Both the position numbers and the translations under genes were made by a program. From a virus: a stretch of 64,000 bases of DNA. The stretch's first letter is position 1. Each line of letters opens with the position of its first letter. The stretch lies in IMG/VR virus record IMGVR_UViG_3300025914_000010, positions 14,661 to 78,660 of that record; one strand, 5' to 3'. Positions 2,879-52,176 of the stretch are shown piece after piece. The notes below the pieces were generated by a model. It saw only the letters and a program-made list of their open reading frames with translations. It was not told the origin of the DNA and ran no database searches.

Positions 2879-3151
2879 GTGATGGCTGACCAAACTTTCG
2901 AGGTAAGCGGAACCGTGACAGAGCACTTAACCGCCGAGAACGCACCGGATGTGAAGACAGAACGGCAGGCGGCGGCATGGTTCCGAGCAACGCGCGGTAA
3001 GTGGCCGGATTGGGTGAACGGCGCTCGCGTCGTCGGATATTGCGTGCAGAGCGGGGAATCGGTTTTTGATGACGATCAGTATGACAGCGACTACGAAGAT
3101 GGCATTCTCATTCTGACCAAAAAGAACCCCGAACACGACGAGCAGCCGTAA
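2879..3151 (+). CDS. Hypothetical protein
   Basis: ORF with GAGGAG RBS. Confidence 0.6.
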   Translation: MMADQTFEVSGTVTEHLTAENAPDVKTERQAAAWFRATRGKWPDWVNGARVVGYCVQSGESVFDDDQYDSDYEDGILILTKKNPEHDEQP

Positions 3152-8530: not shown

Positions 8531-10111
8531 TCAAGACGCCTCAACCTCCACCAGCCGCGCATACCCGTCGGTAGCAGTATTTACCACCAGCCGGAACTTG
8601 CTGCTCGTAAAGGAGGCAAACGTCACCGTGCGCTTCACGAGCCGGTTGCCGGTCACGCTTGCAAGCGTCTGCCACTTGCTGCCGTCCCACCCGAGCACAT
8701 CGAACGCGGTGACCCCGTACAGGCTGAACGTCGTCGCATCGGTCGGCTCGATCGGCGACGCGAGGTTATCTTGCAGCGTCGTGACGGTGAACTGAGAGAA
8801 CGCGACAGGCTGTGGGAAGTCGAATTCCACCCACTTCGGAAACACTCCCTGCTGGCCGTCGTTCCACCCGCCGCCCGGCGCACCTTTGCCCCAGTTCGCC
8901 CCCTTGTGATCCCCGTCCACAAGGTTCGAAAGCGGGAACATGCCCGACAGGTACGTGCTGGACGCGGACATGGAAGCAGAGGCGAGGGCGTTGCCGGGCA
9001 GCGGAGCAGGCCCGACAGTTTGCAGGGCGGGCACAGCCGCAATCACCTGCGTCTTGAACGCCTCCATCTCAGCCTTGAACGCAAGGAAATCTGCCTGGCT
9101 CATATCGTCTCCTATCATCCGACGGAGCGTTCCGTCACCGATTCCGGTCGCAAGCGACTGCGAGTATTGCGTATGGGCGCGCTGGACGATCTTTCCGATC
9201 GGCGTCTGCTCGTCCCAACCGGACAGCGTTCCGCCGCCCCATGCGTTGTACCAGACGAACTGCGAGCCACCGGCGAGCGCCGCCCGCATCAGCGGCCAAA
9301 CGTCCCACTGCCACGCCCACGAGCAGAACAGCATCAGGGCGCATGTCTGCACCTTCCCACTCGCGAAGTCGTGCTCGCTCCCGATGTTGTACTCCCCGAT
9401 CCCGCCGTCGTCTCCGCCGCGGCTAATCCCTCCGTCGAACAGTGCCCCTGCGAGGAACGACTTCCCGGCGTTCACCGTGAACCAGTGGTACGCGTCATCG
9501 ACATTCGTGAAGTCGAGGTTGTCGATCGCGCCGCCGACCACATCGGTAAGGTCCGCCGTCAGTTTGTTCGTCAATCCAGCGAACAAGTAGTCGAGGTAGC
9601 ACACGAGCGCGGCGCGTGGGCTGTAGGAATAGGCTCCGGTTCGGTAGTCGTGGTTACGATCGAGGTAGGCGTCGATGGCGGCTCCGGGGTCCGGGACAAC
9701 ATTGCTCATATCGTCGAAGTAGACGCGGCTGACCGATCGGACGGCGGCTGTCGGCCAGAATCCCCACGCGCCGTTGACGCCCTCGAAGTGATCCGTGGCA
9801 GAATTGAAGCCCCAGCCGTCGAGAGTGTCGGTGGCGTAGACGCAATCGATCGATCCAGCGCGTTCGATGTGTCCATCCGGGTCCCAGGTGACGGACGGAA
9901 TAGCGACCTTCCCCCATATCTGAACGTGGTCGGGGGCCAGCGCGTGAATGCGGGCGGCTACGTCGGTGACGGAGACAGAGGCGTCAAGGGTGATCTGCGT
10001 GATAGAATGCCCTTCGTTTCTCGCGTCCTGCGCCCAGCGGAACAATCGCGTCGAGTTGCGTGCCTGGGTTGCGGTTTCTGTGATGGAGAGAATGTTCAAC
10101 CCAGTCTCCAC
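8531..10111 (-). CDS. Protein with C-terminal F5/8 type C (discoidin) carbohydrate-binding domain
   Basis: NALASASMSASS..NLVDGD..WVEFDF..ARLVEVEA; directly downstream of the endolysin. Confidence 0.65.
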   Translation of the reverse strand: METGLNILSITETATQARNSTRLFRWAQDARNEGHSITQITLDASVSVTDVAARIHALAPDHVQIWGKVAIPSVTWDPDGHIERAGSIDCVYATDTLDGWGFNSATDHFEGVNGAWGFWPTAAVRSVSRVYFDDMSNVVPDPGAAIDAYLDRNHDYRTGAYSYSPRAALVCYLDYLFAGLTNKLTADLTDVVGGAIDNLDFTNVDDAYHWFTVNAGKSFLAGALFDGGISRGGDDGGIGEYNIGSEHDFASGKVQTCALMLFCSWAWQWDVWPLMRAALAGGSQFVWYNAWGGGTLSGWDEQTPIGKIVQRAHTQYSQSLATGIGDGTLRRMIGDDMSQADFLAFKAEMEAFKTQVIAAVPALQTVGPAPLPGNALASASMSASSTYLSGMFPLSNLVDGDHKGANWGKGAPGGGWNDGQQGVFPKWVEFDFPQPVAFSQFTVTTLQDNLASPIEPTDATTFSLYGVTAFDVLGWDGSKWQTLASVTGNRLVKRTVTFASFTSSKFRLVVNTATDGYARLVEVEAS

Positions 10112-10698
10112 CCGCCGCCGTCACCGTTACTTAGATCACCGTCCGCCGACATGCCCGCGATTGTCGCCGCCGCAAGCTGCTTCAAATTCCAGTCGAGGTA
10201 TTTGCGCGACCCACTCCAGCCGCCGCTCTGAGCGAGCCACGTCCAAGATACGTACCCTGCGCTCTTAAGCCCCGCACAGACCGCCCCAGAGCCGTAGACG
10301 CCCACATTGTAGGTGTCCTTGCCAATCTGCCCGTGACGTTGCAGGCTATCCCTCACGCCCTTGAAGTAATCGACCACCGTCGCCGCCGGAACGTCGCAAT
10401 CGACCGCGAAGTAGATCGGTGCGCTGAACGGCTGGCCGATGTGCTGCGCGAACGCGAACGCGGCGGCTCCGTCGAGGATGCCTTGCTGGTAGGTGAAGAA
10501 GGAGGCATGGTCGCCGGCACTCTCCCAGACGGTCACTACCGCGAGGAGGGCTTTCGAGAGTGCCTGCACTTCTGCGATCGTCATGTTCTTCCATGCGCTG
10601 TGGCTGATGTACCTCGCGACAAAACTATAGCCGAGACTCTTGATCTCGGCTATGTGGGGCGTGCAATTCTGCGTAGTATCAAGACCTTTGTTTGTCAT
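10096..10698 (-). CDS. Endolysin, DUF1906 (GH25-like) glycoside hydrolase
   Basis: GLDT..GYSFVARY..VWE..PIYFAVD.D..VGVYGSG.VC..W.WLAQS motifs. Confidence 0.85.
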   Translation of the reverse strand: MTNKGLDTTQNCTPHIAEIKSLGYSFVARYISHSAWKNMTIAEVQALSKALLAVVTVWESAGDHASFFTYQQGILDGAAAFAFAQHIGQPFSAPIYFAVDCDVPAATVVDYFKGVRDSLQRHGQIGKDTYNVGVYGSGAVCAGLKSAGYVSWTWLAQSGGWSGSRKYLDWNLKQLAAATIAGMSADGDLSNGDGGGWRLG

Positions 10699-10879
10699 CA
10701 GTGAGAAATCCCAAGCACCTGCCGCCCCACCAGCCAACAGAACACGATCATCGCGATGACGGTGAGCAGGGTTACAATCTCTTTCAGGCGGTCCATAAGG
10801 CGGTATCTGTGTGCAGCGTCAGTACAGCGCTCGACACGAAATCGAGCGTTATTACGAGAAGTCGGGGGCCAAATAACAG

Positions 10880-10910
10880 AAAAGCCTCGCTCCGATGAGG
10901 GAACGAGGCT
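10880..10910 (-). terminator. Intrinsic terminator after the ncRNA cassette
   Basis: AGCCTCGTTCC/GGAGCGAGGCT stem followed by TTTCTGTT on the minus strand. Confidence 0.7.
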
Positions 10911-10917
10911 GCTCGGC

Positions 10918-10964
10918 AAGTTACTCGGAAATTACTCGGAAGTTACTCGGAAGTTACTCGGAAG
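10918..10964. repeat. Tandem repeat, 11-bp unit AAGTTACTCGG, four copies
   Basis: Directly visible; one copy reads AAATTACTCGG. Confidence 0.95.
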
Positions 10965-10967
10965 GTT

Positions 10968-11331
10968 TTTGATCTCTGCGGGCCGGTCGCTTAATCCGGC
11001 TCAGACTGCCCGATTTGTCCGCGCCCGGTGGTTGACTAAACTCCGGTTCGTCGGGTGCCTGTAAGTATAGGTAGTCACTCCTATACCCTGTCTTCCTGGA
11101 GTGAGCGTGTCGATTAAAGGGAGCCAGCCTTCGTTGCCCTTCCACGCCGCCGCAGAGATCAAACCGGTTTTCACTGCCGAACCATCCCAAGGGCAGGTAA
11201 AGGGTTCCTGTTGGCCGCGACTTTCGTCTCGCACCCTCCACGTCAGGCATCTTTCAGCGACAGTGAAATCGGTAGAGGCATATAGGGAGCCTAACGCTTC
11301 ACACGGCATGAAGCCGAGTTTCATGCCTCTA
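10968..11331 (-). ncRNA. Structured non-coding RNA domains 3' of the tRNA, class unknown
   Basis: Three consecutive domains closed by 9-, 11- and 14-bp helices. A G-U pair favours the minus strand. Confidence 0.65.
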
Positions 11332-11405
11332 TAATGGCGGCGCGATTCGAACGCGCACTGTGCAGGGTTTAAGCCTGCTGTCTCCTGCCGTTGGACTACG
11401 CCATC
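11332..11405 (-). tRNA. tRNA-Leu (anticodon UAA), short variable loop, CCA not encoded
   Basis: Cloverleaf: acceptor GATGGCG/CGCCATT, anticodon arm GCAGG-CTTAAAC-CCTGC, T arm GCGCG-TTCGAAT-CGCGC, discriminator A. Confidence 0.9.
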
Positions 11406-11410
11406 GAAGC

Positions 11411-11548
11411 GCAGTCACCTCCGACACGGGTAAGGCGAAAGAGGTGACTGCTTGTGCGAGGTGGTATGGATGGAACTGTAGGTTAAACGCAAATCGTCCG
11501 AATCCGACTCGGAAAATCTAGGTCCTAGACAGCCCACCACGACTCACA
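11411..11548 (-). ncRNA. Structured leader domains 5' of the tRNA
   Basis: Perfect 11-bp hairpin (11411-11421 / 11441-11451) and a multibranch domain (11454-11548). Minus-strand TATAAT at 11554-11559. Confidence 0.55.
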
Positions 11549-11873
11549 TATCTATTATACCCCACCAGTCACCTGCTCACCGTCCGCAGTCCGCTTCCCG
11601 CCCAACCGCCCAACCGCCCCAGCAACTCCTCCTCGCCCAGCCGCTCGGCGTCGGCGGCTATCTGGCGGTCCCAGGCGTCCTGATCGGCCTGCAACTCAGC
11701 ACGCGCTTCGGCGAGTAGATTCGGGTATTCCGGGTCGTCTTTGTAGCGGCGGCTGACGAGTTTGGCGGCAGGGCAGGTAATGGCTGTTGTGGGTCCGTAT
11801 CAATCGGCGGCGTCAATAGTGATTATCGATTTCTGTTAAATTGACCAGAATGCTTGTCGAGTAGTCTACTAAT

Positions 11874-11896
11874 TTTGATCTCAAATCAGGTATAAT
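11874..11896 (+). promoter_or_regulatory. Palindromic TTTGATCTCAAA box plus TATAAT of the HNH cassette promoter
   Basis: TTTTGATCTCAAA-t-CAGGTATAAT, nearly identical to 34213-34236. Confidence 0.7.
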
Positions 11897-11968
11897 TTAG
11901 CAGACAAAACAAAAGCCCCCGCGACGGCTGGAACCGTCCGGGAGCGTGACACCGAAAGGGTAATTTCG

Positions 11969-12595
11969 ATGTGTAAGAAGTTTACCTCAACCCAGAACCA
12001 CAGTCGCACGTGCTTGAATTGTGCCCAACCACTCAAACGCGGCAGTATAAAATATTGCTCAAAAATCTGCCACGATGCTGCTCAAACAATCAATCCCGTT
12101 GTGAATTTCTGGAACCATGTAAGCAAATCCAACATGTGTTGGATTTGGACAGGTTCATTAACAAGACAAAACGGTTATGGCAATTTTGCGTACCGCACGA
12201 ACGGAAAACGCACGTATTGCAATGCTCATCGGTATTCTTGGGAGATACATTTCGGGTGCGTGCCTGCTGGAGTGTGCGTTTTACATAGATGCGATAATCC
12301 GCAATGTGTAAATCCTGACCACCTGTTTCTTGGCACGCATAGAGATAATTCGCAAGACATGGTTTCTAAAGGACGACAAGCGTTTGGTGACAGGCATGGC
12401 TCCCACATTCAACCTGAAACTGTTCAGCGTGGGGAAGATAACGGCAACTCCAAACTTACGCCTGAAATTGTACTTGAAATTCGTCGCCTGTATTTGATCG
12501 AAAAAGTCAAATCACTGGTGATTGCCAACAAATTCAATATCTCCCAAGTTACCGTGACAAATATTGCACATCGCCGATCTTGGCAACATGTTTAG
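11969..12595 (+). CDS. HNH homing endonuclease
   Basis: CWIWTG..AHRYSW..VLHRCDNPQCVNPDHL.LGT..DN..DM..KGR plus a C-terminal HTH. Confidence 0.92.
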   Translation: MCKKFTSTQNHSRTCLNCAQPLKRGSIKYCSKICHDAAQTINPVVNFWNHVSKSNMCWIWTGSLTRQNGYGNFAYRTNGKRTYCNAHRYSWEIHFGCVPAGVCVLHRCDNPQCVNPDHLFLGTHRDNSQDMVSKGRQAFGDRHGSHIQPETVQRGEDNGNSKLTPEIVLEIRRLYLIEKVKSLVIANKFNISQVTVTNIAHRRSWQHV

Positions 12596-12807
12596 TCTGT
12601 ATCCGTAACCGGTGGGGGGCTGACAACCTCCGTTTTCGTCACACTCTGCACGCTCTGAGGTTGCAGGCTCTCCTGTGGCACGAGCACACCGAGCAATACC
12701 AAAAGAAGGTGCTCTATGATCGGCGGTACGGGCTGCTTCGCTACACCGAGCGCGATTTCCGCAACGACGCAGAGGGCCATGATGATTACGAGCGGGTTGA
12801 ACTTCAT
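12592..12807 (-). CDS. Putative holin (two transmembrane segments)
   Basis: Two hydrophobic segments; lysis region. Confidence 0.5.
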   Translation of the reverse strand: MKFNPLVIIMALCVVAEIALGVAKQPVPPIIEHLLLVLLGVLVPQESLQPQSVQSVTKTEVVSPPPVTDTD

Positions 12808-13766: not shown

Positions 13767-14258
13767 CTACCCAATCACATCGCTCTCCGGGTGCAGCAAA
13801 TTCATCTGCCGCCGCAGGCTCTCGCACTCTCCAGCCAACCTGCGGTTCTCGTTGCGTAGGTTGGCGAACTCGGTGTCCCGGTCTTTCATCGCGGCGCGCA
13901 GGTCGGCGTTCTCGGTCATCAGCCGCGCGTTCTGTTCCTGTACGGCGACAATCTCCCGCCGCGCCGCCAGCGTCTCGTTGCGCGACGTGTTTAACTCCGA
14001 TTCGATGCCGCGAAACTTCTGGCTGAATTCTGCTTCCATGCTGCGCATCGTGTTTTCAACCGTGTCGAACCGCTCAACCGCCTTCAGTTCGCGATCCTGC
14101 GCGAGCCGCTTGTCGGTGTCCTTGCTTTCGAGTATCTTGCTGAGAAGCGAATAGCGGCTTGTCACGAACGCGGCGATGACTGCGCCGGAAACGGTGACGA
14201 TCGCGAGGAACGCCGCAAAAAACGTGGGGAAGTTCCAGCCGGGAGTAAAGGTGGGCAT
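13767..14258 (-). CDS. Membrane-anchored coiled-coil protein (lysis accessory)
   Basis: N-terminal TM segment followed by a long heptad pattern. Confidence 0.6.
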   Translation of the reverse strand: MPTFTPGWNFPTFFAAFLAIVTVSGAVIAAFVTSRYSLLSKILESKDTDKRLAQDRELKAVERFDTVENTMRSMEAEFSQKFRGIESELNTSRNETLAARREIVAVQEQNARLMTENADLRAAMKDRDTEFANLRNENRRLAGECESLRRQMNLLHPESDVIG

Positions 14259-14364
14259 AGGCTGTTTTCCTCGTAAGGTCAGGGTGCCATCCATAGCCGT
14301 AAATCTCCGTCCTGAGAAATCTAATGGCAGGGATAGATGCGCCGGGCAGGTGGAAAACTCGTTG

Positions 14365-14706
14365 TCAGTCCTTAATCAGAACGCCGACCGTCGGCGTCTC
14401 AGTGTCGTCGTCCCAGTGCGCCTTAAATTTCAGGTAGTACCATTGGCCGGAAATCAACCCGAGCGTGGTTGGGTCGAAGTCCTCGAAACTCACGTACCAC
14501 GTCGTATCAGCCGCCGTCGTGCCCGCCTGATTGACAAACCCGCCGGTTGCATCCGTGATCGGCGGCGTCCCAGCAGGCGCGTTGCTGCCGTCCACGAGCG
14601 AGCAGGTGACGGCGGTGATGGTGGTCGCCTCTCGGAACGTGATCGTCGCCGCCACGTCTTTGACGCTGCCCTGCCGTCGCGTGATGAGACTGTCTGCTTG
14701 GATCAT
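14365..14706 (-). CDS. Hypothetical virion-associated protein
   Basis: Beta-rich ORF coupled to the upstream gene. Confidence 0.55.
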   Translation of the reverse strand: MIQADSLITRRQGSVKDVAATITFREATTITAVTCSLVDGSNAPAGTPPITDATGGFVNQAGTTAADTTWYVSFEDFDPTTLGLISGQWYYLKFKAHWDDDTETPTVGVLIKD

Positions 14707-46804: not shown

Positions 46805-47368
46805 TCATTTGTGTAGAAACGGCTTCAATTCATCCATTGATGCCGCCTGCGTCAAATCGCTGTGTTGCCAGTAAACCATTCTCACTCCATCATCGTCCGT
46901 TGATTTGTAAAGGAACGGCTTGTCGATCGGACAATAAAAAAGCCCCGTAGGACATTCCTCCGGGGCTTGCCAACGCTCTACATCTCGCGGCCAAGTGTCT
47001 GACTGCACATGCAAAAAGAACAACAGTACACGATGATCTGAATACTTTTGAACTTTCAGGTAATCCAGATAGTGATTGTGGTTTATGCCTGTTACGAACT
47101 TCTTTTCTATGCCGTACCAGCTAAAGCGCGTTTTACGTTTTGCCTCAACCCACCCATGCCAAAAATACCCGGAAGGCGCGGATGGGTTGAAAACAAACAT
47201 GTCTGGCGCGACTAATTCTTCACCATCACAGAAGAATTGTGGTCCCTTATGATCGTCGGTTTCCTTCTCGTACACCGGTAGAACATGGAAACCAATCGAC
47301 TTCAACCACAGCGCTATGATGCTTTCGCCCATTTTGCCTATTAGAAGCTGCCTACGAAAATCCCTCAC
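46805..47368 (-). CDS. PD-(D/E)XK nuclease-like protein
   Basis: GE..IA, APD, WVEAKRK; GTGA coupling to the methyltransferase. Confidence 0.65.
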   Translation of the reverse strand: MRDFRRQLLIGKMGESIIALWLKSIGFHVLPVYEKETDDHKGPQFFCDGEELVAPDMFVFNPSAPSGYFWHGWVEAKRKTRFSWYGIEKKFVTGINHNHYLDYLKVQKYSDHRVLLFFLHVQSDTWPRDVERWQAPEECPTGLFYCPIDKPFLYKSTDDDGVRMVYWQHSDLTQAASMDELKPFLHK

Positions 47369-48426
47369 AGTGTCGCCCCCCATCCGTAGACAGAGAACGA
47401 TTCTAAGAACCAATCACGATCTGGCCCAAGGTAGATAATCGCCTGCCCCTGCAATGGCGCGGAGAGTTTGCCGCCCGGTTCCCAAAACCGAACGCGGCCC
47501 CGCGTGAACACTACGGCGCTGGCAACCTCAACAATCTTGCAGAACCATGCCGTTTCCGTGGCATTGTTCACGAGCACAATAGCCGAAGTCACATCACCGG
47601 CGCGGAAATGCTCAACCAGTTTTGAAGCGAATTGGCCGATGAGTTCGCCTGCATACGGCGGGTTCATCCATACCCGGCCTTGCCAACACTGCTTTAATCC
47701 GTCTGTCTCAGCATCGAAGAACTGAGCCGCGCCGACAACCTCATTGGCCGCTGCGCTGGATGCAGGATCGGTGTCGATACCGCCCATGACGGCGATTGCA
47801 GAAGTGATGTACTCCTTCGGTGTATACCATTCATTGTTTCCGGCGTTGTAGGAGACGTGCGCTGTCTTTTCAACTTCGCCCCATTTCGTTGTTTCGGCCC
47901 ACTGCGCCCGCGCTTCCGGCGAAATGTGACAGTAGGGGCAATACGGTAAGTCTGCCGCCCAAATATGTGATGGATTGACTTCGCACCGCTTCAGCCCGTC
48001 ACTGTCTACATGAAATGACTTCGCGTCAGTATAAGCAGGCGCACTAAAAAACGCCGGTTCCTCTGTCAGAGGTTCCGGCGTAAATGCTGCCAACTCAATT
48101 TTGAGCGGAGGCGGCAATTCTTTTGGCTTGTTGAATATATGAACAGCTTCGCGCAGACTAAGATTCGCAACGCGTTGCGAATCTTGCAGTAGTTCGTACC
48201 TGCGCTCATAAACGCGCATATAGAGATTGGCCGTCCTATGGCTTCCCTCAAAATTCTGCGCTACCCATTCAATCCATTTACCGTACTCAACCTTGCCCTT
48301 TTGTTCTGTAAGCAATTCCCCCGCACGAATTGCGTGCGGCAGTCCCGAAAGATATGCTGACTGAACGGCCCGATGTTCCTCATTGATTTCCGCTACAACG
48401 TCATACACTAATGCTAATTCGCTCAT
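47365..48426 (-). CDS. DNA N6-adenine methyltransferase (phage Dam-like) with DUF3102-like N-terminus
   Basis: EWYTP, DPAS, DGL.Q.W, WMNPPY, NNATETAWF; AGELL...K....GKW..W. Confidence 0.9.
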   Translation of the reverse strand: MSELALVYDVVAEINEEHRAVQSAYLSGLPHAIRAGELLTEQKGKVEYGKWIEWVAQNFEGSHRTANLYMRVYERRYELLQDSQRVANLSLREAVHIFNKPKELPPPLKIELAAFTPEPLTEEPAFFSAPAYTDAKSFHVDSDGLKRCEVNPSHIWAADLPYCPYCHISPEARAQWAETTKWGEVEKTAHVSYNAGNNEWYTPKEYITSAIAVMGGIDTDPASSAAANEVVGAAQFFDAETDGLKQCWQGRVWMNPPYAGELIGQFASKLVEHFRAGDVTSAIVLVNNATETAWFCKIVEVASAVVFTRGRVRFWEPGGKLSAPLQGQAIIYLGPDRDWFLESFSVYGWGATL

Positions 48427-48562
48427 GTTTGCGCCCCTCCCAGGCGCTTTATCCTCCAAACGACAAAAAGCGCATAGCAAGCGTTTGGAGGAACGCTTTT
48501 CGCCCCGTCGGGCTAGCTATGCGCAGGCTGGTGAACAGCCATTTTCAGTTTTTAGCGAACGC

Positions 48563-50598: not shown

Positions 50599-52176
50599 TT
50601 ATGCCGCCCGTATTCGTTTCTTCGCTAGTCCGCGCACATACGCACAGGCGTAGCGGCAGGCGTCCATCCCGTGATCGAATTCTTTGACGGGTTCTTCCTT
50701 ATTGGGTTTTCCGCTTTGATCCTTGGCCCATACGTAGAACGTAAACTCTTCCGCTGTCCGCGTCGGCTTCTTCTTTTCCGCCAGGTCCGCATCCGGCATC
50801 TTAAGCGGAAACGTCAGTTTCGCCGCATCGAGCGCACCGCGCAGAATCATCAGCCGAGGCCGACCATCGCCTGCTACCTTCAGACTATCCTGAACCGCCT
50901 GGATGCCGGGGCTAACCTTCTTCCACGCCGGAATGCTCCGAATACCTTCTGCGGCCAGCGTCGCGCGATCTTCCGCGTCGTGGTCGCAGATCGTACACTC
51001 GATTTTTTCATCCACACTCAGGTTTCGGATATCGCGGGCTATCTCGCTCACAAGGACGTGCGACAAGTAGATTTCACGGTACAGGTACATCCTGCCGTCA
51101 GGATCTATCGCCCACCACTGACAGACGAAGGGGTTCTCGTACCCGAAGTCGATGACTCTAATTCGTCGCCAATCCTTCGGAATCTTAAAGTCTGGCACGG
51201 TATGGGTTTTGTAGTCGAAGGTGTCGTAAACAACACCTTCTGCTTGGACCCACTTACCCAAGAAAAGCCGATCGCGTCGCAGTCCGGTCAAATTGCCGAG
51301 GATTTCGAGCGAGCGTCGCCCCTGATCTGTCCATCGCCCTATTCGCCCGTTGTAAGCCCGATCGGGCCATTCTTCGCACTGTTCCGCCACGTCGTCCGGC
51401 GCGAAATCGAACAGCGTTGGGTTATCTTCGTGCCTGCTCTCAAGCAGCCTGATATGAGGGCTGGTAACGATCCAGTGTGACGGAGGACCGGGGTTTGCGT
51501 CCACGATCACCTGCGTGTACGGCATCACGGCGCCGCGTCCGGTAGCGCGCGTCGTGATGGTCTCGATGTGATCTAAGCCTAACTCCTCCGCCTGGTTGAT
51601 GTAATATCCGTCGCGTTCACCCGACAGTACTTTCGCGAGATTATCGAGGCCACCAACCCATAATCGGCTCCCGTTCGGGTAGTCAAACCATTCTGGCTTC
51701 TCGCCACCGTACGCCTTAATCTTGCTGTTCTCGCCAACAATGCGCTTGTACGTCAGCAGGCAGGTTGCGATACACGAACTGTACGTAAGCCTGAGCATTA
51801 CCCACTGCGCGCCGGGATACTTCCACAGAAGTGCGTTGACCTTCTTGAGCGCACCGTACGTTTTGCCTGTCTCCGACGGTCCTGCGAGCGCGACCAGGAA
51901 GTCGCGGCTGTGCCACAGTTCCCGCGCTCCACCGCGAAGCGAGGATATGTCGAACGCGTCCCTCGGGTTGTCCTTCGGGTCCCACGGCTTCACGTCCGGC
52001 GGCAGAGCGCCTTTACGCTGCAACTCCTCGCGGATCATCTTTTCGAGCGCCGGTGACATCGGCTTCTTGTTCGTGCCGTTCACCACGCTCTGCAGCTCGC
52101 GCTCGGCCTTCTTCCGCTCTTGCCGTTCTTTGAGTTCAGGCAACGGAACGCCGCCGCCCATGCTTTGACCCGCCAA
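50599..52176 (-). CDS. terL: Terminase large subunit
   Basis: GPSETGKT Walker A, NPGPP.HW, DNP, IDFGY.NPF, DHGMDA.RY. Confidence 0.95.
   Translation of the reverse strand: MAGQSMGGGVPLPELKERQERKKAERELQSVVNGTNKKPMSPALEKMIREELQRKGALPPDVKPWDPKDNPRDAFDISSLRGGARELWHSRDFLVALAGPSETGKTYGALKKVNALLWKYPGAQWVMLRLTYSSCIATCLLTYKRIVGENSKIKAYGGEKPEWFDYPNGSRLWVGGLDNLAKVLSGERDGYYINQAEELGLDHIETITTRATGRGAVMPYTQVIVDANPGPPSHWIVTSPHIRLLESRHEDNPTLFDFAPDDVAEQCEEWPDRAYNGRIGRWTDQGRRSLEILGNLTGLRRDRLFLGKWVQAEGVVYDTFDYKTHTVPDFKIPKDWRRIRVIDFGYENPFVCQWWAIDPDGRMYLYREIYLSHVLVSEIARDIRNLSVDEKIECTICDHDAEDRATLAAEGIRSIPAWKKVSPGIQAVQDSLKVAGDGRPRLMILRGALDAAKLTFPLKMPDADLAEKKKPTRTAEEFTFYVWAKDQSGKPNKEEPVKEFDHGMDACRYACAYVRGLAKKRIRAA

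Follow-up and report, generated by a model that had tools for sequence, protein, structure and literature searches.

Small stable RNAs encoded in phage tRNA regions, such as RNAC and RNAD of T4, have been known since the 1970s, and their roles are still unexplained. In Escherichia coli, the rtT repeats distal to tyrT are units downstream of a tRNA gene that contain a segment resembling a tRNA 3' end and are freed when the tRNA transcript is processed. RNAC and RNAD belong to the late RNAs and have no known role (PMC3014915, PMC9697503), and processing of the PR'-tR' RNA of lambdoid and Stx phages yields a stable small RNA (sRNA; PMC7547250). RNase P also cuts phage RNAs that are not tRNAs (e.g., M3 of phi80 and C4 of P1/P7), and a terminal helix followed by a single-stranded, NCCA-like 3' tail is a feature that the enzyme uses on non-tRNA substrates (PMC11143913). 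Here, we describe a tRNA-containing cassette of about 600 nucleotides (nt) that lies upstream of the lysis genes on the minus strand of the window (i.e., the 64,000-nt stretch that was analyzed, positions 14,661 to 78,660 of IMG/VR virus record IMGVR_UViG_3300025914_000010). The source record (78.7 kb; rated complete) represents an uncultured soil siphovirus-like phage.

The minus strand of the window carries a single long late operon, which begins with the large terminase gene (50599-52176), continues with genes for the portal, protease, major head protein, and tail, and reaches as far as the lysis genes. A gene-free stretch of ~680 bases (681 nt folded) is situated on this strand 5' of the lysis genes and is bounded upstream by an open reading frame (ORF) that stops at 11569. 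The stretch consists of self-closed RNA domains and does not encode proteins, and its 3'-most domain (the core RNA) is conserved in related phages together with a flanking promoter-like box and a terminator. On this basis, the proposal that the stretch is a noncoding transcription unit at the junction of the late structural operon and the lysis genes stands, in our judgment, evenly balanced. We see an even chance that the unit is an operon of small stable RNAs with tRNA-type processing, which arose when an older gene for a single RNA took up a tRNA and further modules. The parts of the cassette, in the order of transcription, are as follows.

11552..11559, minus strand: octamer box TATAATAG, -10 type without a -35 element; its TATAAT part is at 11554-11559
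11454..11548, minus strand: domain 1, a 95-nt irregular hairpin at the predicted 5' end of the transcript (minimum free energy [MFE], -31.8 kcal/mol; z = -2.3)
11411..11451, minus strand: 41-nt hairpin with a 12-bp stem, 5 nt upstream of the tRNA (MFE, -24.3 kcal/mol; z = -7.0)
11332..11405, minus strand: tRNA with anticodon UAA, 74 nt (ARAGORN; Rfam tRNA RF00005, 52.9 bits; cut-off, 29)
11273-11331 (11269..11331 with its tail), minus strand: 59-nt domain with a 10-bp closing stem (z = -3.2)
11169-11268 (11164..11268 with its tail), minus strand: winA, a 100-nt domain with an 11-bp closing stem (weak z = -1.0 to -1.4)
10968-11163 (10964..11163 with its tail), minus strand: winB, the 196-nt conserved core RNA, closed by a perfect 14-bp inverted repeat (z = -3.2 to -3.3)
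10912..10964, minus strand: 11-nt tandem repeat CUUCCGAGUAA, 4.7 copies, between winB and the terminator (TRF score, 90)
10873..10910 (also placed at 10883-10910), minus strand: intrinsic terminator, with a U run after an 11-bp stem that contains 7 G-C pairs

A first-pass annotation of the window had already listed the TATAAT box, the self-closed domains, the tRNA, the tandem repeat, and the terminator, and all of these are found on the minus strand where it had placed them. The closing inverted repeat of winB and the 11-bp closing stem of winA were likewise recovered, though the z value of the latter is weak. The hairpins at 11451-11411 and 11331-11273 are closed by stems as proposed, with stem lengths of 12 and 10 bp rather than 11 and 9 bp. 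Domain 1 had been described as multibranched; it folds as one long irregular hairpin. When the 681 nt are folded as a whole, all of the domains keep closing on themselves (z = -3.4).

The linkers between the domains are very short. The 59-nt domain begins right after the discriminator base of the tRNA (0 nt), winA follows it after CC and GA, and winB follows winA after ACC and GG. All three domains 3' of the tRNA end in a stem followed by A and CC, with no more than 2 nt to the next helix (i.e., ...CUCU-ACC-GA, ...GAAA-ACC-GG, and ...AAAA-ACC-UU; the end of the 59-nt domain, ...CUCU-A-CC-GA, was read from the sequence). The 5' context of winA is ACCGA|UUU, and its tail is AAA-ACC-GG. In winB, a terminal helix (P1) encloses a hairpin (P2), a variable central domain, and a second hairpin (P4) that abuts the 3' strand of P1, after which the A-ACC tail follows. 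The box TATAATAG occurs only once in the 64-kb window. The CUUCCGAGUAA unit has no exact match elsewhere in the window on either strand, and its two one-mismatch matches are at chance level.

Three ORFs of 98, 107, and 102 amino acids (aa) overlap the cassette, and these open frames of 98 to 107 codons are the one point in favor of small proteins being encoded here. None of them matches a Pfam or PHROG family. Moreover, all six frames contain stops in three of the related RNA copies described below (L009, L006a, and L004), and the copies differ by frame-breaking indels. Protein-level conservation of the ORFs was thus looked for in these copies and not found, in agreement with the earlier view that the ORFs do not look like proteins. 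A coding function is contradicted by these observations, and we consider it scarcely conceivable.

The size of the region, its phage origin, and the adjacent tRNA resemble what has been reported for the large noncoding RNAs (ncRNAs) GOLLD and ROOL, and the whole 600 nt could in principle form one large structured RNA of this or a similar kind. However, apart from the tRNA, no Rfam 15 family reaches E = 0.3 in the region or in its relatives; the tRNA was the only match both at the gathering score and at E <= 10. The 600 nt are also not conserved as a unit, and the domains fold independently. The analogy with GOLLD and ROOL that had been drawn for this region therefore fails because no Rfam model scores above chance, and a single large RNA, already contradicted, is very improbable.

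The conservation of the cassette was examined through its relatives. With the whole cassette as the query, the GenBank phages returned tRNA matches only, and IMG/VR pattern scans with the 11-nt repeat, the tRNA 3' half, the core RNA 3' strand, and the post-terminator leader of the relatives found no new members (the single match, in a collagen-like gene, was false). For this reason, the endolysin, which has many relatives, was chosen as the anchor. A single endolysin sequence retrieved two distant loci, both without tRNAs, and profile-guided scans of metagenome and viral contigs identified at least three related phages, i.e., L004 (endolysin 84% identical to that of the window), L006 (66%; the same phage as L084, with 2 differences in 7.7 kb), and L009 (65%; identical to L085 across the 8.6-kb locus and from the same 72.5-kb contig). 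A 175-aa protein encoded upstream of the RNA found no relatives when used alone; an alignment of this protein found one new relative, whose contig ends short of the RNA locus. The gene order around the RNA locus is syntenic between the window and the relatives. No tRNA is located near the endolysin gene in L004, L006, or L009, and none at all is present in the two full IMG/VR records. BLASTN matches between the window and the relatives are confined to the two ends of the 196-nt domain (91% identity), and the 11-nt repeat is missing from all three relatives. The cassette is thus not one conserved unit of 600 nt, as had been supposed; homologues exist for its 3'-most domain only, and the tRNA and the other domains occur in no relative.

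Five copies of the core RNA (140 to 200 nt) were found in the four phages, i.e., one each in the window, L009, and L004 and two in tandem in L006 (L006a and L006b), at a syntenic site upstream of homologous endolysins (65 to 84% aa identity). In each relative, the layout is an upstream ORF, the box TATAATAG, a leader of 15 to 70 nt, the RNA, an intrinsic terminator, and the lysis region; the same octamer thus precedes the RNA in all four phages. The RNAs of the relatives start with UUUGAUCCUGCGGC and end with GGCCCGCAGGAUCAAA-ACCA, and the tail is AAA-ACCA in all four of these copies. The terminator of the window aligns with those of L004 and L006, and the differences within the stem are compensated.

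All five copies share one fold, in which P1 (13 to 14 bp) joins the ends and is followed by 1 unpaired nt, the P2 hairpin, a variable center with one or two hairpins, P4 (5 to 6 bp), and a free tail; the 3' strand of P4 continues straight into the 3' strand of P1. The z values of the sense strand are -3.3, -2.3, -3.3, -3.8, and -1.9, and those of the antisense strand are inconsistent. In the model-fitted alignment of the five copies, the P1, P2, and P4 pairings are present in 92% of the cells. P1 of the window copy contains an extra U-A pair that was inserted on both strands, P2 of L006b shows a G-C to A-U exchange, and L004 has a wholly different yet paired P2 as well as an extra A-U pair in P4. 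The core RNA family is real, is absent from Rfam and from the GenBank phage isolates, and is so far found within one small phage clade.

A covariance model (R1) was built from the five copies, which it scores at 85 to 158 bits. No further copy was detected by R1 in ~1.3 Mb of endolysin neighborhoods or in three whole phage records. A scan for the 3'-strand pattern in one genome each of 185,579 prokaryote species listed 39 matches, all of which R1 rejected; there is thus no prophage or host copy among them, a result that also speaks against both an attP site and a segment derived from the 3' end of a host tRNA. In addition, a descriptor search (a 12-bp terminal helix followed by AAAACC) over 1.1 Mb recovered the known copies and one weak candidate, L086, from a phage with 42% endolysin identity. 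In L086, two stem-AAAACCG units lie at 2990-3130, in a noncoding gap between a Gly/Tyr/Ser-repeat protein and the lysis region. The candidate was not counted, as its fold is no better than those of shuffled sequences (z = -0.3).

The content between the box and the terminator varies among the four phages, with one or two RNA copies, an extra small ORF in L006, and the tRNA and hairpins in the window. Such variation is expected of a recombination hotspot with a structured but functionless spacer, in which the 13-bp inverted repeat would be a palindromic or miniature mobile element or a site for a protein acting at the DNA level. Several features are compatible with this explanation: the content differs strongly among the relatives, an HNH endonuclease gene adjoins the cassette, the ends of the element are conserved and its interior is variable, one strand of P1 is more conserved than the other, and short direct ACC(R) repeats are located on either side. 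Nevertheless, this explanation is at odds with the lack of extra copies in three complete or near-complete phage genomes and in ~1.3 Mb of other loci and with the prokaryote genome scan, which yielded chance matches only. It also leaves unaccounted for the inner helices P2 and P4, which are kept with compensated changes, the bias of fold stability toward the sense strand, and the fixed position between a conserved promoter box and a terminator. We therefore regard a functionless hotspot as distinctly unlikely.

The stretch between the tandem RNA copies of L006 (2866-3085) is low in G+C content and contains a possible ORF for a 34-aa membrane peptide, which is a further sign of an insertion hotspot. 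In the relatives, the terminator is followed by a nearly identical noncoding leader of ~80 nt (L004, 1075-1145; L006 and L009, 3295-3362) that is missing from the window. A hairpin in this leader (CCUGUAAG...CUUACAGG) overlaps the Shine-Dalgarno sequence of a gene for a Cys-rich protein of ~140 aa, which has no Pfam match and is also missing from the window; the hairpin looks like a translational operator.

The tRNA of the window forms a cloverleaf with a 7-nt anticodon loop and scores above the Rfam gathering threshold, and it is the only tRNA of the phage. Bacterial tRNA-Leu molecules belong to class II, with a long variable arm and a length of ~85 to 87 nt. The assignment as tRNA-Leu made by the first-pass annotation stands for the tRNA itself, but not for the class II leucine form: the molecule is of class I, with 74 nt, a variable loop of 5 nt, and no encoded CCA; its isotype is given by the anticodon alone, and its amino acid identity is uncertain. 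UUA accounts for 32 of the 669 Leu codons in 19 confident genes; a tRNA with the UAA anticodon would thus serve a rare codon. The scaffold formed by its D and T arms is also seen in tRNAs of Streptomyces phages that have different anticodons. In Streptomyces phage Coruscant, a nearly identical scaffold is combined with a UAG anticodon, and in phage Sham, such a molecule has the annotation tRNA-Gln (L221, 245-319; L222, 246-320).

The ~390 nt from the TATAAT box to the core RNA (i.e., the two 5' hairpins, the tRNA, and the 59-nt and 100-nt domains) have no counterpart in the relatives, and domain 1 has no homologue in any locus compared. Since the relatives lack the tRNA and the other domains, these represent a lineage-specific insertion. 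One of them, winA, shares the ACCGAUUU leader and the AAAACC tail with the core RNA family, and the ACCGA|UUU context before it is also found before the L009 and L006a copies. Its closing helix differs from that of the family but is complementary over 11 bp (UUUCACUGUCG / CGGCAGUGAAA). On the basis of these shared motifs, winA may be a diverged second copy of the core RNA. The octamer ACCGATTT, which precedes RNA copies, was found at 8 sites in the window (e.g., 11266-11273, 23104, and 25689), compared with 2.2 expected, and none of 100 shuffles reached 8. G001 and G002 were also examined, and the sites are mostly on the transcribed strand in G000 and G002; several of them are intragenic, and the enrichment may therefore reflect codon usage rather than a signal.

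Taken together, these features can be arranged into a model of a processed RNA operon. The ancestral core would be one structured RNA of 140 to 200 nt that is driven, or at least preceded, by the -10-only box TATAATAG and ended by the conserved terminator. Its end resembles a tRNA acceptor arm, in that the P4 hairpin abuts the 3' strand of P1 as a T arm abuts the acceptor stem and leaves the ACC(A) tail free. In the window phage, the gene would have been enlarged by the addition of the tRNA(UAA), the two 5' hairpins, the 59-nt hairpin, winA, and the 11-nt repeats between the promoter and the terminator. The primary transcript would start at the TATAAT box or arise by read-through from the late operon. 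Given a genuine tRNA, host RNase P and the 3'-end enzymes must cut any transcript that crosses it, and the 5' side of the tRNA is accordingly predicted to be cut by RNase P and its 3' side by RNase Z or exonucleases. Further cuts may occur at the foot of each stem-ACC module, either by RNase P or by an RNase E-type activity at GA|UUU. The GA|UUU foot fits the RNase E motif, which has been quoted as RN|WUU (PMC7547250), and the minihelix-type form of RNase P substrates, in which a terminal helix of ~12 bp precedes an unpaired RCCA tail, is present in all copies, with a 13- to 14-bp P1 followed by A-CCA in L004, L006a, L006b, and L009 and by A-ACC-U in the window. The outcome would be several small stable RNAs, comparable to tRNA-Arg, RNAD, and RNAC of T4. 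The acceptor-like end of the core RNA suggests action through a factor that recognizes tRNA ends, and the RNA would then most likely act in trans, late in infection, via this end.

Several observations weigh against this model. The transcription, processing, and function of the cassette are inferred, and a consensus scan found no -35 partner for the TATAAT box. The covariation evidence is thin, because five copies from closely related phages provide few independent compensatory changes and several of the counted "both-side" changes trace to one register shift; the collection of homologues proposed earlier thus yielded five copies with 92% pairing but few independent compensations. In addition, the 3' strand of P1 is nearly invariant, and four copies have an uncompensated irregularity of the 5' strand at pair 7-8 (L009 and L006a, a bulge; L006b, C-A; L004, G-G). 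This asymmetry between the strands may point to selection for the sequence itself and not for pairing. The window copy ends in AACCU rather than ACCA, and the tRNA(UAA) has no encoded CCA, so that the ACC tails may not be CCA ends. Neither ARAGORN nor the Rfam tRNA model finds tRNA-likeness in any core RNA copy, and the P4 loops (AUUAAGCGA, AGUAGCGA, and ACACGAC) lack the T-loop consensus UUCRA. No CCA-adding enzyme, RtcB, or Ro protein, any of which would hint at a tRNA-end pathway, is encoded by the phages examined. Finally, R1 aligns winA from end to end at only 1.5 bits (E = 0.23, not significant); its membership in the family is therefore a suggestion and not a demonstrated fact. Of the RNA operon as first proposed, the noncoding nature, the conserved promoter-like box and terminator, the genuine tRNA, and the stem-A-CC ends are upheld, and its conservation as a unit is not.

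The principal competitor of the processed operon is a cis-acting, terminated leader of the lysis genes, of the lambda PR'-6S-tR' or StxS type. A constitutive or late promoter would drive a structured leader as far as the strong terminator. The lysis genes would then be expressed only when termination is overcome, and the RNA itself would be an antitermination or timing device, or a by-product that was possibly co-opted as an sRNA. In keeping with this, the order of box, noncoding RNA (245 to 665 nt), strong terminator, and lysis cassette is kept in all four phages, though the first gene past the terminator differs among them. In Stx phages, moreover, tRNA genes are located between tR' and the late genes that follow, the 258-nt PR'-tR' transcript gives rise to a functional sRNA, and transcription of the downstream tRNAs appears to start from a promoter situated between tR' and stx2AB (PMC7547250). 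The complete phage record, however, contains no Q-type antiterminator (PF06530 or PF03589), although unrelated antiterminators may exist. No conserved alternative pairing between the RNA and the terminator was seen: the terminator arms vary, and a near-complement in P2 of the window copy is unmatched in L009, which also led us to reject a riboswitch-like antiterminator. The self-closing helices, the tandem duplication (in L006 and the window), and the free ACC(A) tail fit released RNAs better, and the lysis genes end the late operon instead of beginning it. We consider a terminated leader unlikely on this evidence, although it deserves more weight than the hotspot.

A further proposal, for which we hold out little hope, is that the core RNA is the first of a class in which a body that is not a tRNA displays a bare acceptor end of the tRNA type (a 13-bp minihelix plus ACCA); such RNAs would be completed by the host CCA-adding enzyme and would serve as a late decoy or sponge for host factors that recognize tRNA 3' ends. 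Should this be so, candidate targets would be defense toxins that modify or cleave acceptor ends, RNase P, and EF-Tu. The decoy would then protect late translation until lysis, and the tRNA and the duplicates would be extra cargo of the same processing.

The genes next to the cassette are as follows.

11969..12595, plus strand: HNH homing-type endonuclease (PF13392, 5e-13; PHROG HNH matches), on the opposite strand and adjoining the cassette
11569..11799, minus strand: upstream ORF remnant, 76 codons from stop to stop, with the first ATG/GTG/TTG only at codon 36
10698..10796, minus strand: 32-aa single-pass membrane peptide, holin-like, read from the sequence; first gene past the terminator
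10096..10737, minus strand: endolysin with an Rv2525c-like glycoside hydrolase domain, PF08924 (Pfam, 6e-27; PHROG endolysin, 8e-26)

The upstream ORF remnant ends 10 nt ahead of the TATAAT box. Its homologue in L004, a 96-aa ORF with 63% identity that is located before the RNA, has a normal start. The N-terminal part that the remnant lacks coincides with a low-G+C island (11800-12600) that holds the HNH endonuclease gene (G+C content of 0.43 to 0.50, compared with ~0.62 nearby), and insertion of this gene may have truncated the ORF. A small membrane peptide similar to that of the window is encoded ahead of the endolysin in L004. The terminase of the late operon is nearest to those of Streptomyces and Thermobifida phages (36 to 40% identity). 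The 175-aa protein (13767-14294, minus strand) comprises an N-terminal membrane segment and a long coiled coil and is conserved at 53 to 57% in G002 and in another IMG/VR contig, L211; it may have an accessory role in lysis, as a spanin-like or another protein. The cassette as a whole is flanked by the arms of a perfect 13-nt inverted repeat, one of them just upstream of the TATAAT box (11572-11584) and the other, 801 nt away, inside the holin-like ORF (10758-10770). L004, L006, and L009 lack this repeat, which may be due to chance or be lineage specific. Within the head-gene region, the predicted 5' end of a DNA methyltransferase-like gene (47365-48480, minus strand; TTG start at 48480) is covered by an Rfam int-alpA RNA match (48453-48523, minus strand; 50.1 bits; cut-off, 35.8), which reaches upstream of the gene.

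Several known systems resemble the cassette in part. A group I intron in tRNA-Leu(UAA) was rejected, as the tRNA is uninterrupted and no intron model matches; a retron was rejected given that there is no reverse transcriptase gene, and a type III toxin-antitoxin RNA because the 11-nt unit is too short. Permuted tRNA mimics of the DUF7873-linked kind were likewise rejected, as the cassette has no DUF7873 gene in its vicinity. GOLLD and ROOL are also phage borne and often near tRNAs, but neither model matches at E <= 10, and the cassette consists of small independent domains in a row, with conservation in only one of them. The rtT repeats have no sequence relation to the cassette, and the Rfam RtT model has no match in the window. 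YrlA Y RNAs are likewise structured RNAs of 100 to 200 nt with a long end-joining helix and a tRNA-like module, and some are phage encoded. In YrlA, however, the tRNA-like part is placed away from the terminal helix, and the 3' end has no CCA tail; the Rfam YrlA model has no match in the window or its relatives, and the phage has no TROVE/Ro gene.

The RNase P substrates that are not tRNAs (i.e., P1/P7 C4, phi80 M3, pre-4.5S RNA, and transfer-messenger RNA [tmRNA]) share with the core RNA a terminal helix followed by an NCCA-like tail, and phage-encoded examples exist among them. Rfam detected no match to C4, 4.5S RNA, or tmRNA in the window and relatives, and ARAGORN found no tmRNA. For tmRNA, including the two-piece form, the core RNA lacks the diagnostic acceptor pair, as P1 begins with U-A, U-A, U-A in contrast to G3-U70.

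Lambda 6S and StxS offer another parallel, with an always-on promoter, an ncRNA of ~200 to 260 nt, and an intrinsic terminator that precedes late or lysis genes, and Stx2 phages also have tRNA genes there (PMC7547250). The cassette shows the same arrangement of a promoter, a short ncRNA, and a terminator directly upstream of lysis genes. It differs in that the phage has no Q-family antiterminator and its lysis genes end the late operon, and StxS is a linear sRNA of the Hfq type, whereas the core RNA is a helix-closed junction with an ACCA tail. If the region is nevertheless a lysis leader, it would represent a Q-independent analogue of the lambda PR'-tR' switch in a high-GC soil phage.

Of the arrangements described so far, that of T4 is nearest to the cassette. 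RNAC (species 1) and RNAD (species 2) of T4 are ncRNAs of 119 to 139 nt that abut a tRNA on one transcript, as the domains do in the window. In the T4 record, tRNA-Arg, rnaD, and rnaC abut with linkers of 1 to 6 nt, a homing endonuclease gene lies inside the cluster, and the lysozyme region adjoins; here, too, a homing endonuclease gene is beside the cluster and a lysis region is its neighbor. The rnaC fold includes a terminal helix and a T arm (GGGUUCGAAUCCC), and this arm abuts the 3' strand of the helix as P4 does in the core RNA. The search of the phage collection with the whole cassette listed no T4 record, and no direct alignment of the cassette with rnaC or rnaD was made. The two systems differ in several respects: rnaC has a canonical T arm, which the P4 loops are not; abutment to a tRNA is seen in the window only, as the relatives have none; and the core RNA exists in these tRNA-less relatives with its own promoter box and terminator and a terminal helix of 13 to 14 bp. 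The locus thus provides a second, unrelated, and evolutionarily dissectable example next to that of T4, in which a core RNA with its own box and terminator and a tRNA-acceptor-like end occurs with or without a tRNA and in one or two copies per phage. If the processing model is correct, a stand-alone phage sRNA gene can capture a tRNA and additional modules and thereby become a tRNA-type operon, and the core RNA, with its compact size of 140 nt (L004) to 200 nt, would be a convenient substrate for studies on the role of such RNAs immediately before lysis.

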